From positions 33,634-97,633 of the forward strand of contig OY970289.1 in the NCBI GenBank assembly GCA_963716135.1: a stretch of DNA of 64,000 bases, written 5' to 3'. The position numbers and the translations under genes are program-made. Source of the DNA: Pirellulales bacterium (GTDB lineage: Bacteria; Planctomycetota; Planctomycetia; Pirellulales; JADZDJ01). Under the pieces are notes generated by a model. That model ran no database searches and was not told the DNA's origin. It was given only the letters and a program-made list of their open reading frames with translations. Positions 1 through 4,528 of this stretch are shown one piece after another. Each line of letters opens with the position of its first letter. The first letter of the stretch is position 1.

Positions 1-202
1 CGCGCTGGCTCAGGCCGGTACGTTTGAAGTATTCATCGACGCGCTTTCGCAGCGTCGGATAGAAAGCGTCTTCCGCGCCAAACTTCAATTGGCCGGGCGC
101 TGCCTGCGGGCGTGCGCTTCGCTGTCCGTTTGCGCTTGCGGCACGCGCGAGGCTTGGCGCCGGCATCGATTTGAAATGGATGACATTATCCATTGAGTTC
201 AT
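1..202 (-). CDS. Probable acyl-CoA/fatty acid desaturase, 5' part only (runs off the window)
   Basis: Manual translation from ATG 202 gives ...LKFGAEDAFYPTLRKRVDEYFKRTGLSQR, matching the typical N-terminal 'F..L+.RVdeYF..G' segment of bacterial linoleoyl-CoA-type desaturases. The His boxes lie outside the window. Confidence 0.6.
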   Translation of the reverse strand, partial: MNSMDNVIHFKSMPAPSLARAASANGQRSARPQAAPGQLKFGAEDAFYPTLRKRVDEYFKRTGLSQR

Positions 203-309
203 GCCGCCCGTTTGCCGGCAGTCGCGAAACATTGGCAGCGCATAAAATCCGACCTTGCGGAGTGCGGCTCATGTTCGATCTGCGACGACTTCGGACGGTT
301 TACTCCGTG

Positions 310-456
310 CTAGACGGCTCTGCGGCCTTGTAGCAAATTGACGATCAACACAATGACGGCAATTACCAAAAGAATGTGCACTAATGGCCCAGCTATGCCG
401 AATCCGAGTCCCAAAGCCCACATCAGCAACAAGACAACTAAAAGGGTCCACAACAT
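310..456 (-). CDS. lmo0937-family (DUF5670-like) small membrane protein, 48 aa
   Basis: Not in the ORF track. GGAGGTG RBS precedes MLWTLLVVLLLMWALGLGFGIAGPLVHILLVIAVIVLIVNLLQGRRAV*, matching the family pattern MLW...W.LG...G.lIHILLV.A...GRR. Confidence 0.85.
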   Translation of the reverse strand: MLWTLLVVLLLMWALGLGFGIAGPLVHILLVIAVIVLIVNLLQGRRAV

Positions 457-480
457 ACGTCACCTCCAAAAGCGAAAAGA

Positions 481-590
481 AACCAACAAAAAAACCGACG
501 TGGCCGAACACCCTGGGGTGGTCAACCACGTCGGTTTACTCTTTAACAAGCCCCGGCCTAGAGCCGGCTGCTCTTTATCTAGTCTTCCGA
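481..590 (-). promoter_or_regulatory. Conserved structured leader/attenuator RNA, copy A (ends in an intrinsic terminator)
   Basis: Close homolog of 3210-3322 with compensatory changes. Long hairpin ACCGACGTGG...CCACGTCGGT plus a U tract lies ~25 nt upstream of the 310-456 start. Confidence 0.75.
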
Positions 591-656
591 CAAGCTTGCA
601 ATTAATCATACCCCGTGAAACAGGACAATTCAAGCTGCCGACGGCTTTTTGAACTA

Positions 657-2206
657 TCAATCGGCTTTCTTAACCGCCGTGAATACGTCGAGCAGCGTCT
701 GGAGCTTCACCGGCTTGACGAAGTGATGATCAAAACCGGTCTCTTGATGACGTCGGCGATCTGCCTCGCTAGGTGTAAAGCCGCTCAAAGCGCACAGGAC
801 GGTGTTCTGGAATTCCGGCTTCTCTCGTAAGCGCCGCGCGACCTCGTGCCCATCCATGCCGGGCAACCCAATGTCCAGTAGCACGACGTTTGGATGAAAA
901 TCGGACGCCATTTCCAGAGCCGTGGGTCCAGTGCGGGCCACCAAGACTTCATTGCCATGAAGGCGCAACAGCATACTCAAACTATCGGCTGAATCGACGT
1001 TGTCTTCCACCACCATGATCCGCAGGCCGGGGGCAGCGTGCTGAATCTTCTCGACGGCCACCCGGGTTTCCTGTCCTGATATCGCTGGCAAGGCAGGCAG
1101 TCGGACTGTGAATTTGCAGCCTTTATTCAGACCGTCGCTGTGGGCGTGTATGGTTCCGTCGTGCATTTCGACCAGGTTGCGCACCAAAGCCAAACCAATG
1201 CCCAATCCGCCTTCCGAGCGACCGAGCGTGCCGTTCACCTGCGCGAACAGGTCGAACACGTGTGGCAACATCTCCGGAGGTATGCCCAGACCATTGTCCC
1301 AAATTGTCACGACGGCTTCGTCTTTTTCTCGATAAACATTGATGCGTAGAAGGCCGCCCGGATTGGTGTACTTGGCCGCATTGTTAAGCAGATTCACGAA
1401 AATCTGCTCCAGCCGAACGGGATCGGCATCTACCCAAACAGGTTCCACCGGCAGAGAAATAGAGAGATCGTGTTTGCGCATCGATCAGTATACGCACATC
1501 GTCGGCGGCGCAATTGACCACGGCCCGTAATTCCACTTGCACTTTGCGTAACCGCAGCTTGCCTTTGGTGATTCGACCGACATCCAGGAGGTCGTCCACA
1601 AGGCGCACCATTTGGCCCACCTGGCGTTCGATAATATCTGCTGCCTGCTGCAAAATGGGGTCGTCGGTCTTAATCTGACGTTGGATATTTAGTGCATTAA
1701 CAATCGGGGACAAGGGGCTGCGCAGCTCGTGGGCCAACAGGGCCATGAATCCCTCCTGGCTCTGGTTGGCGCGTGCCAAATCATCCGCCCGCTTCCGCTG
1801 GGCGTCTTGCGCAGCTTTCCGTGAGGTCGTGCGTGACCCGCGCGAAAGACCAGATCTGCTGGCTCTCGTTGAGCAACGGTGTGATGGTTGTCCGGCACCA
1901 AAACCGAGTTCCATCCTTTCGAAGCTGCCAGAGATCGTTGTGTGCCTGATTCCCCGCCAACGCCGTTCTGAGTTCCTGCTCGGGCCGGCCGGCGCGAATA
2001 TCGTCTGGCGAAAAGAGGAGAGAAAAATGCTTTCCGACGATTTCCTGGGACTGGTAACCAAAGCTCCGTTCCGCTCCCGGGTTCCAACACAGCACGTGTC
2101 CGTCCGATCCGACTAGCACGACGGCGTACTCCGTGGCATCCGCCGCCAGCAGATCAAACCGCTCGTCGATTTTTTCGAGTACCGAAATTGTGTCTTCCAT
2201 TGGCAT
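657..2206 (-). CDS. PAS-domain hybrid sensor histidine kinase/response regulator (two indels, ~1810 and ~1478)
   Basis: PAS (WNPGAERSFGY; RKDGTRFW), HisKA (AHELRSPL), HATPase (NLLNNAAKYT, DNGLGI, GGLGIGL) and receiver (VEDN, LLDIGLPGMDG) are spread over three overlapping ORFs. Confidence 0.9.
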
Positions 2207-2251
2207 AGTTTCCGCCTTTCTTTCCGACCGGCGCGGATCCTTCGGCGCAGG

Positions 2252-2625
2252 TTAAACGATTCCAGCGAACGGCATGATGTCGAGTGCGTTCATCTGACGG
2301 ACAAGCAACTGCAATTCACCCCCGTTGCGAGGTAGGTCCGCTTTTGAGAATTGCTCGGCAAGCGATTCTAGCTCCGCAGCAATTTCAGGTATTTCTCGAG
2401 CACGTTCACTCCAGTGCCAGATGGAGGCGATGAGCGTCATCGCTCCCAAATCTTGAAACAGCCCATTGTCCGCTTCCGCTCGCTGAACCACGCGCTGCAT
2501 GTGCGCCGGAAAGGCATCGGAAAAACGTCGGCCTGTACGGTTCCAGCGAAATGACCGGTCGTTAAGCCAGCCGTCTCGGTGGACGGCATTCTACGCATCA
2601 ATACTTTTTCAGTGGTTGTGGACAC
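2252..2625 (-). CDS. Hypothetical protein (two overlapping ORFs, probably one gene with an indel ~2520)
   Basis: AGGAAAGGAAA RBS before GTG 2625. ORFs 2437-2625 and 2252-2500 join across a T homopolymer. No recognised domain. Confidence 0.45.
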
Positions 2626-2879
2626 GCGTGTTTCCTTTCCTATAAATGGTGTCGAGATGTCTTTGCTGTCTCTTCGGCCACTTTGTTGGATATAAGGCGC
2701 TGTCCCCAGCCGCTGACGCGGCTTCTCGGTTGCATTTCAACACGACTGAGGACAGACGCCGCAAACCGATCAACGAGAAGCACTATTTTGATTTCAGATG
2801 CGCCCCTGGGAACTGGACTTATCTGTTGTTATCCGCGAGTGATTTCCAACTTGCCAATTGATTCGACGCACGAGGCACG

Positions 2880-3113
2880 CTACCGCAAAGGCGATGGCGG
2901 GACTTGTGTCCGGCGGTCCAGTGCGCCATTGCCATTGCCATTGATTCGGTCCCAGATTTCCAGTCGATGGACCGGAACATCGGCATCGACTTCGAAACCC
3001 AGTCGAACTTTTCCGCCCCGAATATCCAGCACCGTGACTTTCAGCAGGCGGCTAAAGCCATTGGATCCACCGACCACCACCGATTCCCGATTTTTCCGCG
3101 ACAAAACTAACAT
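2880..3113 (-). CDS. csrA: Carbon storage regulator CsrA/RsmA (variant with loop insertion)
   Basis: MLVLSRKNRESVVVG...VTVLDIRGGKVRLGFEVDADVPVHRLEI; GGAG RBS upstream of ATG 3113. Confidence 0.9.
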   Translation of the reverse strand: MLVLSRKNRESVVVGGSNGFSRLLKVTVLDIRGGKVRLGFEVDADVPVHRLEIWDRINGNGNGALDRRTQVPPSPLR

Positions 3114-3209
3114 GGGTAATTCTCCGGTTGCACGATTCATTCCCCTTGTCGAACTCGGCTGCAATCTTCCGCAGGTACGCTCCGAGCGAACGTCGTTACC
3201 TTCCGCGAA

Positions 3210-3322
3210 AACCAATAAAAAAACCGATGTGGCCGACCACCCTGAGGTGATCGACCACATCGGTTTACTTTTTAACGAACCTCCCGGCACGTCGCCGGGC
3301 TGCTCTTTATATAGTCATCCGA
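3210..3322 (-). promoter_or_regulatory. Conserved structured leader/attenuator RNA, copy B, upstream of csrA
   Basis: GATGACTATATAAAGAGCAG-CCCGGC(gacgt)GCCGGG-AGGTTC...AAACCGATGTGGTCGATCACC(tcag)GGTGGTCGGCCACATCGGTTTTTTT; homologous to 481-590. Confidence 0.75.
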
Positions 3323-3388
3323 AAACCGCACTACAAACTTCTTCGCGGAGCAAACCATCGATTTGGTTTTAACTCCACTGCAACACGC

Positions 3389-3405
3389 AGCATATCACGT
3401 GCCGA
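3389..3405 (-). promoter_or_regulatory. Putative sigma-54 (-24/-12) promoter for leader B and csrA
   Basis: TCGGCACGTGATATGCT has exact GG-N10-GC spacing and lies ~65 nt upstream of the leader. Confidence 0.5.
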
Positions 3406-3493
3406 GCAGAATACAAGGCCTAATCATTGCTTCGCGCTCGATTTATTCAGTTTAATTGCCGAGAAGTGAGAATCCTGTTTGCAGAAACCCATG

Positions 3494-3970
3494 CTAGCGC
3501 TTCGGTCGCCAGCGCCCGACGCGCCCACAGTAAACCTGATAGTCGTTGCCGAACGTTTGCCGAAGCGTCGGCTCTTCGTAAATGACAACGAAACCATGCG
3601 TGACGAGAAGGAATAACACCGCGTAGCCTAATAGCGGAACGGACTGGTAACACAGCGCCGCTCCAGCAAGCGCCAGAGCTGCGCCGAGATACATCGGATT
3701 GCGCACGAATCGATAGGGACCCCGAACCACCAGCCGCCGCGGCGGGTCGAACGGCGCCGGCGTGCCATGGCCGAGAATCGCAAATGTCAGAATGCACCAC
3801 AATGCAATTGCGGCGCCCACGCCGGTCACCATCATCCCGACGACCTGCCACAAGCCAATGATCGGAATTGGCGCGATGCCAGTCCACGACAACACCCGGG
3901 CCGGAAGAAAAACCAGCAGCACGCCAATGAACAGCGAAGAGTAGGTGATGGCGCGGATCAGAACCCACAT
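3494..3970 (-). CDS. Isoprenylcysteine carboxylmethyltransferase/PEMT family membrane protein
   Basis: GTPAPFDPPRRLVVRGPYRFVRNPMY and EEPTLRQTFGNDYQVYC..V.RW motifs, with TM segments. Confidence 0.9.
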   Translation of the reverse strand: MWVLIRAITYSSLFIGVLLVFLPARVLSWTGIAPIPIIGLWQVVGMMVTGVGAAIALWCILTFAILGHGTPAPFDPPRRLVVRGPYRFVRNPMYLGAALALAGAALCYQSVPLLGYAVLFLLVTHGFVVIYEEPTLRQTFGNDYQVYCGRVGRWRPKR

Positions 3971-4096
3971 GTCGGAATCCTCTAATCGTTAGTCTGTTGG
4001 CGCTGCCGGATGGCTCGATTATTATGGCAACACCGTGACTGGTATGCTCTGGAATTTGAGAATTTTGTACAATGCGGAGTAGTCGATAAGCGATGC

Positions 4097-4125
4097 TTGG
4101 AATAGGTGCAACCGACCATTATGAT
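4097..4125 (+). promoter_or_regulatory. Putative sigma-70 promoter of the DUF2294 gene
   Basis: TTGGAA-N17-TATGAT ending 22 nt before ATG 4148. Confidence 0.4.
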
Positions 4126-4147
4126 TTTGTCTCGGCAGAGGCCCGAC

Positions 4148-4528
4148 ATGAAGACTCAAGGCGAAATCGAAGCTGCAATCTGCGCAGGAATTACGCAATT
4201 TGAGCAGCACTACATGGGTCGCGGACCGAAATCGATTCATGCCCATCTGATCGGCGATCTGCTGGTCGTCCGCCTGCAGGGTGTGTTGACGGCTGCAGAG
4301 CAACAACTTGTTAAATCGCTACCGTCCGAGAAGGGAAGAGATCTGCTGAAGCAAGTGCGCACCCACCTGGTTGAAACCGCGCGACCGGTGATGGAAACCA
4401 TGATCGAAGAGGTAACCGGGGTTAAGGTGTTGAGCCTGCACCAAGACATCAGCACCACGACCGGCGAAGAACTGGTTGTCTTCACCCTCGCCGAAGCGCC
4501 TCATTACCGCGAAGGCAGTAATAAATAG
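4148..4528 (+). CDS. DUF2294 / MpsC-family protein
   Basis: MKTQGEIEAAI...YMGRGPKSI...VVRLQGVLTAAEQQL...GRDLLKQVR...SLHQDISTTTGEELVVFTL is the family signature. Confidence 0.9.
   Translation: MKTQGEIEAAICAGITQFEQHYMGRGPKSIHAHLIGDLLVVRLQGVLTAAEQQLVKSLPSEKGRDLLKQVRTHLVETARPVMETMIEEVTGVKVLSLHQDISTTTGEELVVFTLAEAPHYREGSNK

Follow-up and report, generated by a model that had tools for sequence, protein, structure and literature searches.

The window analysed here is a 64-kb stretch (64,000 nucleotides) of contig OY970289.1 from a Pirellulales bacterium. On its minus strand, inspected over positions 1-4200, it carries two copies of a leader RNA, an element of about 105 nt that joins a conserved 5' box and an irregular hairpin (domain 1) to an intrinsic terminator. 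Copy A, at 488-590(-), lies ahead of an open reading frame (ORF) of the lmo0937 family and a desaturase gene, and copy B, at 3217-3322(-), lies ahead of an ORF of the CsrA family. An earlier note on this DNA had placed two minus-strand homologs at 481-590 and 3210-3322 and had named the same downstream genes, and both points are borne out. It had counted two copies; both are real, but the genome holds 11 full ones.

Aligned with 30-40 nt of flanking sequence, the two copies show 84% mean column identity, and the similarity drops off beyond the edges of the element. The 17-letter word GACTANATAAAGAGCAG from the 5' part occurs twice in the window against 0.07 occurrences expected, a number reached by none of 100 shuffles. 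Copy A folds at -53.1 kcal/mol (z -4.6) and copy B at -61.9 kcal/mol (z -8.7), in each case with 0 of 200 dinucleotide shuffles as good. A terminator scan called the hairpin of copy B whole (3266-3221, 20 pairs, 10-11 of them G-C, T7) and only the lower 5 pairs of that of copy A, because of a C.U mismatch in the latter; the U7 of copy A (494-488) overlaps its last terminator pairs. The compensatory terminator pair noticed earlier, a C-G to U-A change, is real. The A-rich tracts, which had been described as conserved and single-stranded, are conserved but partly pair with each other to form the short helix P1b.

Further copies were gathered by BLAST and by a covariance model (CM) built from the copies. 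For the 10 copies that BLAST detected in the own genome, RNAalifold predicted a fold in two domains that includes compensatory changes. A structure of 37 pairs was then scored on a MAFFT alignment of 150 diverse copies, comprising 45 of 67 from relatives and all 105 from a pattern scan of public genomes. In this alignment 92.4% of the cells are paired; column shuffles give 83.5%, and none of 500 reaches the observed value. Double-change cells number 518, compared with 134 in shuffles. Sliding the partner columns by 1-3 lowers pairing to 28-47%. The 13 top column pairs by mutual information all fall within the structure, and the best single pair, located in P2, is found as AU 55, GC 47, GU 27 and CG 12 times. 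The covariation and the fold z-scores uphold the claim of a structured RNA with covarying stems and an intrinsic terminator.

From the 5' end, the element consists of the box UCGGANGACUA, P1a, a 3x3 loop, P1b, a bulged A, P2, an internal loop, P3, the terminator and the U tract. Within the box, C1, G2, G3, A4, G6, A7 and C8 are present in 173-179 of 179 copies, and 164 of 179 have a U at -1, a position imposed neither by the model nor by the pattern. Two pairs of P1a (ACU:AGU) are invariant in 150 of 150 copies and are therefore uninformative on pairing, and P1b (UAA:UUA) covaries. The internal loop between P2 and P3 is A-rich/G-rich, the P3 loop varies freely (3-6 nt), and the terminator loop commonly has 4 nt. 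The terminator abuts domain 1 without a linker. Its 21 pairs are G+C-rich (93.8% and 91.8% paired in the two parts of the helix) and run immediately into a tract of 6-8 U in 157 of 180 copies, which is the build of an intrinsic (Rho-independent) terminator. The lower terminator stem, GCCGACGUGG/CCACGUCGGC, is unusually conserved in sequence, with CCG/CGG in 147-148 and ACGUG in 108-133 of the 150 copies. Copies taken from relatives with the model show the same conservation as the pattern-derived ones. A mini-hairpin pairing U-1/C1 with A7/G6 around a GGAN loop was considered and found unsupported, position -2 complementing C8 in just 87 of 179 copies. A subgroup of leaders (loci L085, L026, L032, L089, L110 and L112; window 3323-3390) has a 45-60-nt 5' extension following a TATAAT box. 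It contains an extra hairpin, GGGAG..GUGUCC-loop-GGACAC..CUCC, whose conservation does not extend beyond the family of the own genome.

The 11 full copies of the 4.25-Mb genome lie at 31.8-36.9 kb (four, of which two are just left of the window), at 894 kb (one) and at 3.205-3.275 Mb (six). A terminator-only remnant without 5' box and domain 1 was also observed at G000:C1:3217547-3217600(-) (L015); the ORF behind it appears by eye to be DUF2294-like over its first ~45 residues and receiver-like over the rest. In the order sample of 61 genomes (the own genome and 60 relatives of the same order), the model matches 23 at E<=0.01, the copies frequently occurring in clusters of several. A second model, run on 150 other genomes sampled evenly across the phylum, matches 5 of them, 2 of the same class and 3 of other classes. 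A degenerate DNA pattern with 22 fixed positions, scanned against public contigs of one genome per species, found at least 120 further stretches in several classes, and copies in these loci were confirmed by the covariance model with scores of 49-112 bits. The labels among the 80 matches listed include Pirellulales, Planctomycetaceae/-ales, Gemmataceae, Isosphaeraceae, Phycisphaerae/Tepidisphaeraceae and Ca. Kuenenia. The earlier note had also looked to Bacillota, and no Bacillota label occurs among these 80. The leader family is phylum-wide but patchy in Planctomycetota. Three odd labels among the matches listed belong to L140, L160 and L191, in metagenome-assembled genomes called Aggregatilineales, Bryobacteraceae and Chitinophaga. 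L191 is likely mis-binned, judging from its near identity to the Planctomycetaceae copy L187, and L140 has a large insertion in P3. Among 2.9 million viral contigs the pattern has a single exact match, at L252:2834-2934(-) on a 22.5-kb IMG/VR contig. Altogether, 180 forward-strand copies with distinct context were collected; the reverse-strand matches of the model correspond only to the palindromic terminator. We rejected the reading of the element as a mobile one, as the copies sit precisely between promoter and gene. No transposase family appears among the 25 families listed in a Pfam tally of the first ORFs.

The position of the copies relative to promoters and genes is well defined. A sigma70-like site with at least 9 of 12 matches occurs within 110 nt upstream of 51 of 176 copies, compared with 9.4 in shuffles, and the end of the -10 box falls into two distance classes before C1, 10-19 nt (22 copies) and 40-69 nt (27 copies). 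For copy A this distance is 15 nt; the site taken alone is not above chance, with 1.6 such sites expected in 3.3 kb. Copy B is preceded by a weak promoter-like TTGTAT-N16-TATGCT (3416-3389), below the scan threshold. On the downstream side, 41 of 146 first ORFs supported by a Shine-Dalgarno (SD) sequence begin within 50 nt of the model end and 82 within 100 nt, and at L188 the SD starts 4 nt past the U tract. In the window, the ATG of the lmo0937-family ORF lies 31 nt past the U tract of copy A, and the CsrA-family gene begins 103 nt past that of copy B. Many start codons are thus too near the U tract to leave room for a promoter of their own, and the downstream genes would therefore depend on read-through. 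At two loci the copies stand in tandem, 17 and 26 nt apart, so that the second copy would be reachable by read-through alone. The upstream sigma70-like sites and the close co-directional genes across the family confirm the proposed 5'-leader placement, and a terminator ahead of coding sequence would imply conditional read-through.

A strand test based on bit scores points in the same direction. For 165 copies, homologue-supported ORFs were found on the same strand in 69 cases and on the opposite strand in 9 (ambiguous 24, none 63); the measure is crude, and those of the 'opposite' calls that were compared with the ORF guesses have a plausible same-strand gene. A first version of the test, based on conserved ORFs, was uninformative (98 versus 87), antisense frames of conserved genes being conserved as well.

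The genes behind the leader belong to many families. The Pfam tally, which covers 150 of 173 first-ORF guesses, contains MpsC/DUF2294 (21), CsrA (10), DUF3309 (6), fasciclin, DUF5670 and Transgly_assoc (4 each), desaturase, HSP20 and DUF1328 (3 each), and ferritin and CsbD (2 each), with FloA, KaiC, G6PD and a P-type ATPase as single cases. YeaQ is also among the families found closely behind leader copies, and the 3 FA_desaturase entries of the tally include full-length orthologs, from relatives, of the window desaturase. These families are presumably those usually annotated with general-stress, membrane and dormancy functions, and the leader-led genes would form a set of that kind. In several genomes (L026:1366-1449(-), L032, L089, L091 and others), a peptide of 28-31 aa (M..TELIILIVVLVLLFGGGGGYYWSRGR), with a weak DUF3309 match of 22.3 bits, was observed directly behind leader copies.

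Two of these families deserve closer attention, since they recur together. Among 150 copies with at least 1.2 kb downstream, counting genes on the same strand within 1.8 kb, DUF2294 follows the leader in 44, CsrA in 33 and both in 23. The DUF2294-CsrA spacing is 9-28 nt in 16 of 19 distinct pairs, and in the own genome the DUF2294 stop is separated from the csrA start by 2 nt. CsrA is strikingly expanded in this order, with 2-12 CsrA matches in each genome of the 61. Among the 14 CsrA paralogs of the own genome, the four that score lowest against Pfam are those in leader-led units. We refer to the divergent paralogs as the CsrA subfamily, which is set apart by a score gap (at least 101 bits, at most 71 for all others) and not by motif status.

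Both proteins follow the distribution of the leader motif. DUF2294 (PF10057) is found in 22 of the 61 genomes, 19 of the 23 motif-positive and 3 of the 38 motif-negative ones, leaving 4 genomes with the motif only and 35 with neither. The CsrA subfamily is found in 13 of the 61, all of them among the 23 motif-positive genomes and none among the 38 motif-negative ones. The control family PF04226 (Transgly_assoc) is present in 49 genomes, 21 of 23 and 28 of 38, respectively. In 12 taxonomic families, one of the two genomes sampled carries the motif and the other lacks it; this difference is mirrored by DUF2294 in 10 of these families, by the CsrA subfamily in 6 and by the control in 1. A link between motif and module is thereby suggested but not proven, because kin genomes are not independent and some assemblies are incomplete.

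The arrangement of DUF2294 is also characteristic. In motif-positive genomes, 22 DUF2294 genes score high, and 15 of them are encoded opposite to a leader, at most ~700 nt upstream of its 5' end, as is the window gene at 4106-4528(+). This divergent, canonical DUF2294/MpsC (~125 bits, leaderless) sits like a regulator beside its target, and a lower-scoring second type is leader-led. At G000:C1:3230364-3230531(-) (L009/L035), a remnant of a DUF2294 C-terminus (E 3e-11) was observed between the leader and the csrA-like gene; here DUF2294 seems to have been mostly deleted. No such remnant lies between leader and csrA-like gene at copy B.

A search for a switch helix gave a negative outcome. The antiterminator that had been suggested, GACUAUAU with AUGUGGUC, does not survive the comparison of 150 copies: 58.5% of its cells are paired, compared with 58.8% in shuffles, and 419 of 500 shuffles do as well. 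A mutual-information scan of all column pairs found no alternative helix or pseudoknot in the same copies; the high-information pairs outside the structure are mostly unable to base-pair, and none is high in both measures. Thus, the leader has the structured, conserved 5' UTR domain of a riboswitch but not the mutually exclusive alternative pairing, and for the candidate riboswitch of the earlier note neither ligand nor switching structure is in evidence.

We propose that the leader is a cis-acting conditional terminator common to stress-type genes in Planctomycetota, a reading to which we give a probability of about 60%. Transcription would start at a sigma70-like promoter whose -10 box ends 10-19 or 40-69 nt before C1. 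The polymerase would make the UCGGANGACUA box and the long irregular hairpin P1a-P1b-P2-P3 first, followed by the 21-bp G+C-rich hairpin with its 6-8 U, where most transcripts would stop by default and yield a short RNA. The downstream genes, mostly without room for their own promoter, would be made only upon terminator read-through. A trans-acting factor would read the box, the hairpin and the conserved lower terminator stem and permit read-through under stress. We infer that read-through is set by such a factor rather than by a classical competing antiterminator helix.

The analysis shows the family, its structure, its position, its gene set and its co-inheritance with the module, whereas conditional read-through is an inference and the nature of the factor a matter of speculation. 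GGA is the core of CsrA sites, and the leader has an invariant CGGANG box and a co-inherited CsrA subfamily, whose binding to it is putative. We prefer a protein effector because no competing helix was found, the terminator is conserved in sequence, the box holds a GGA core, and the module is itself under leader control. The candidate we favor is a protein of the co-inherited, leader-controlled module, that is, the CsrA-like paralog, which could bind the GGA box, together with DUF2294/MpsC. This assignment is possible, although we would sooner bet against it than for it. A wider proposal, that the leader is the common operator of an RNA-level stress regulon, acting instead of or atop an alternative sigma factor and opened by the self-regulated CsrA-like and DUF2294/MpsC module, appears rather doubtful.

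Several observations weigh against the conditional terminator and its proposed effector. Termination and read-through are predictions from the sequence. A look-up of public sequencing runs for window 200-3500 came back empty. The 22 positions fixed by the pattern in 105 of the 150 aligned sequences inflate the apparent conservation there, and kin genomes are not independent of one another as samples. No alternative structure covaries, so how a factor would defeat a 21-pair hairpin stays unexplained. Among the 23 motif-positive genomes, 10 have no CsrA subfamily member and 4 no DUF2294 (some of these assemblies are incomplete), and therefore neither protein is an obligatory partner everywhere. 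Each RNA has one conserved GGA, whereas known CsrA targets usually have two or more sites, and no GGA enrichment was found in the long 5' extensions (27 versus 24.2 expected, 151 of 500 shuffles as high). We know of no RNA-binding activity of DUF2294. Its AlphaFold2 model (pLDDT 75) has no match in the PDB at E<=0.001 by Foldseek, and a sequence search of the PDB returned nothing below E 0.1. A complex prediction of the CsrA-like dimer with DUF2294 scored 0.00, which speaks neither for nor against binding.

Three other explanations can be set against a protein-controlled terminator. The leader may be a riboswitch for a small molecule or ion, in which domain 1, possibly with the terminator stem, would bind a stress signal (an alarmone, a cyclic dinucleotide or a cation) and change terminator efficiency. 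The compact hairpin, whose internal loops and 5' tail hold conserved nucleotides while the stems covary, the constant location in a 5' leader ahead of a terminator, and the conservation of sequence across classes of the phylum would all suit an aptamer. So would the broad gene set, as for signalling-molecule riboswitches, although it names no ligand. We nevertheless consider it unlikely, as no mutually exclusive helix or pseudoknot is supported, a sequence-conserved lower terminator stem is unusual for an expression platform, and the inheritance of the leader along with one specific protein module speaks for a protein as the partner. Somewhat less probable still, in our estimate, is that the short terminated RNA is itself the product, one of a family of sibling small RNAs (sRNAs) that would base-pair via the 5' box or titrate a protein such as the CsrA paralogs, with read-through into the downstream gene as a by-product or second output. 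Promoter, conserved single-stranded 5' box, hairpin, A-rich linker and strong terminator are the usual build of a bacterial sRNA, the genome has 11 near-identical copies, and a GGA in the box coexists with 14 CsrA genes. Yet the copies are almost always closely followed by a co-directional gene without promoter room, the homologue-supported ORFs (69 to 9, crude as this measure is) favor the same strand, and the tandem copies 17-26 nt apart do not fit. Moreover, one GGA per RNA makes a poor sponge, and neither Hfq (PF17209) nor ProQ (PF04352) was matched in the own genome at its completeness of 91%.

The leader could also be an unregulated damper, that is, a leaky terminator behind strong promoters that keeps basal expression of potentially harmful small membrane proteins low, its conservation reflecting recent spread of a cassette. 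The missing switching structure, the patchy distribution and the clustering of copies in islands are in line with it. However, box and loop nucleotides are conserved across classes while the stems covary, which argues for a specific recognition function beyond hairpin and U tract. Domain 1 is not needed for termination. We regard this explanation as very improbable.

In line with the earlier note, the leader matches no Rfam family. A whole-window scan with Rfam 15 at gathering scores matches only tRNA, in window 1-4200 nothing overlaps either element even at E<=10, and 8 loci from other lineages gave 0 matches. T-box leaders have a Stem I with a specifier loop and a T-box sequence that pairs with the tRNA 3' end; the leader has no Rfam T-box match and, at ~105 nt, two helical domains only. 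In ANTAR targets two small hairpins, each with a hexanucleotide loop, stand in tandem and the second of them overlaps the terminator, whereas the leader combines a single long, irregular hairpin, its loop varying from 3 to 6 nt, with a terminator whose loop commonly has 4 nt. The earlier note had likewise recognised neither a T-box nor an ANTAR target. Sponge sRNAs of the Csr/Rsm type have multiple GGA motifs, mostly in hairpin loops, whereas the single conserved GGA of the leader lies in the 5' box and its loops are variable; an Hfq- or ProQ-dependent sRNA would call for a chaperone that has no match in the genome. The family is apparently unnamed. To our knowledge, stress-gene switching in Planctomycetota is largely unexplored, and we found no paper on how these bacteria switch on stress genes. 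No description of the leader RNA was found in the literature searched, including the main texts of PMC11109978, PMC5737381 and bioRxiv 10.64898/2026.10.21.760802.

Several described systems resemble the leader in part. Terminator-type riboswitches and orphan leaders, as far as the passages on the Na+ riboswitch 'DUF1646 motif' (PMC9337991) and on the HMP-PP 'thiS motif' with its terminator-embedded aptamer (PMC6478431) describe them, likewise have a structured 5' leader followed by or merged with an intrinsic terminator and repeated before related genes. The leader family differs in having no Rfam match, no covarying antiterminator and a sequence-conserved terminator stem, and ligand binding by it would be only putative. 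The closest concept in print that we met is the yjbJ motif of Streptococcus, which the relevant part of PMC11109978 presents as a 'weak riboswitch candidate' from one genus, with 40 representatives and one gene. It, too, places two hairpins before a CsbD-like general-stress gene, and the second is interpreted as an intrinsic terminator; its authors also weigh a protein factor (same section of PMC11109978). Its sequence is different, and the leader family, from another phylum, is found before dozens of gene families; the comparison for homology is that of the Rfam scans. The motif 'Rhodopirellula-1', known to us from its row in Table 1 of Weinberg et al. 2010 (PMC2864571), is given there as of ambiguous RNA status, probably cis-regulatory, occurring in Proteobacteria and Planctomycetes, and without Rfam accession. 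Probable cis-regulation and Planctomycetes among the taxa are shared features, and its absence from Rfam would explain the blank Rfam search if the two were the same RNA. On the other hand, its taxa include Proteobacteria, and no such copy is among the 80 matches listed. From this table row, we put the chance that Rhodopirellula-1 is the leader RNA at about one in four.

Comparison with Csr systems is relevant to the preferred effector. The leader resembles CsrA/RsmA-controlled 5' leaders (PMC4894983 and PMC7652899, which also bear on the CsrA-FliW partner switch) in its GGA box near the mRNA 5' end, and the csrA-like genes behind it would allow autoregulation. In other bacteria fliW sits beside csrA, and the small DUF2294 gene 9-28 nt upstream of csrA is reminiscent of that partner, although DUF2294 is unrelated to FliW. 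In contrast to these systems, the leader has one conserved GGA rather than two or more, and its proposed output is an intrinsic terminator rather than a ribosome-binding site; binding of DUF2294 or the CsrA-like protein to it is putative. With sibling sRNA families and Csr/Rsm sponge RNAs (PMC1488887, for the portion on such sponges), it shares many near-identical copies per genome, each with promoter and terminator, but leader copies are fixed before genes.

The leader thus represents a large orphan RNA class of at least 180 copies with strongly supported structure, and to judge from its features it behaves like a terminator-type leader or riboswitch while standing outside every Rfam family. 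It marks a regulon by sequence alone, so that the regulon can be read from any genome, and it ties two poorly understood proteins, DUF2294/MpsC and the divergent CsrA subfamily, to a candidate RNA target. If the terminator is controlled with no competing helix of the usual kind, as it seems to be, this would be new as a mechanism, regardless of which effector proves right. The leader offers riboswitch hunters a well-defined new candidate and CsrA biology a possible new mode of action. If the proposed effector is true, it would be the first CsrA-family protein to control an intrinsic terminator, and DUF2294 would gain its first gene-control function.

The features of the two window units are collected in the table below.

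Table. Leader RNA copies and neighboring features in the window (positions count from its first letter).
Feature	Position	Strand	Details
Leader RNA copy A	488..590	-	U(-1) 590, C1 589, U tract 494-488; CM 104.5 bits, E 1.4e-21
Copy A 5' box	579..590	-	UCGGAAGACUAG; family consensus UCGGANGACUA
Copy A domain 1	538..583	-	irregular hairpin: P1a ACU:AGU, P1b UAA:UUA, P2 GAGC:GCUU, P3 CCGGC:GCCGG, variable loop; from fold and covariation
Copy A terminator hairpin	492..537	-	21 pairs including one C.U mismatch, loop CCAG
Sigma70-like promoter of copy A	605..633	-	TTGAAT 633-628, 17-nt spacer, TATGAT 610-605; 9/12 matches
48-aa lmo0937-family membrane protein	310..456	-	DUF5670 50.8 bits; NF033488 47.5 bits (cut-off 30); SD GGAGG
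Fatty-acid desaturase gene, 5' part	2..232	-	second gene of copy A unit; continues beyond window
Leader RNA copy B	3217..3322	-	U(-1) 3322, C1 3321, U tract 3223-3217; CM 115.9 bits, E 2.5e-24
Copy B 5' box	3311..3322	-	UCGGAUGACUAU; from sequence and family box counts
Copy B domain 1 hairpin	3267..3315	-	P1a, P1b, P2 GAGC:GUUC, P3 CCCGGC:GCCGGG, loop GACGU; from fold and covariation
Copy B terminator hairpin	3221..3266	-	21 pairs, loop UCAG, then U7
Probable 5' extension of copy B transcript	3323..3390	-	extra hairpin GGAGUUAAAACCA...UGGUUUGCUCC, judged by eye
CsrA-family gene, divergent subfamily	2880..3113	-	Pfam CsrA 55.2 bits; subfamily model 125.3 bits
Canonical DUF2294/MpsC gene	4106..4528	+	127.3 bits; points away from PEMT-like gene and copy B unit

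The CsrA-family gene of the copy B unit stays below the NCBIfam equivalog cut-offs (48.7 versus 73). A G+C-rich hairpin without a clear U tract, at 2696-2760(-), 120 nt past the csrA-like stop, may end this unit; its sub-threshold match to the eukaryotic MAT2A_A model (20.5 bits versus 40) is surely due to chance. Between the two units, a hybrid kinase with PAS, HisKA, HATPase and receiver domains (657-2206(-)) is split over three frames (1781-2206, 1384-2061 and 657-1481), which points to two frameshifts; either the gene is a pseudogene or the assembly is in error here. At L091, in a relative, this kinase is intact (519 aa) and lies directly behind a leader copy.

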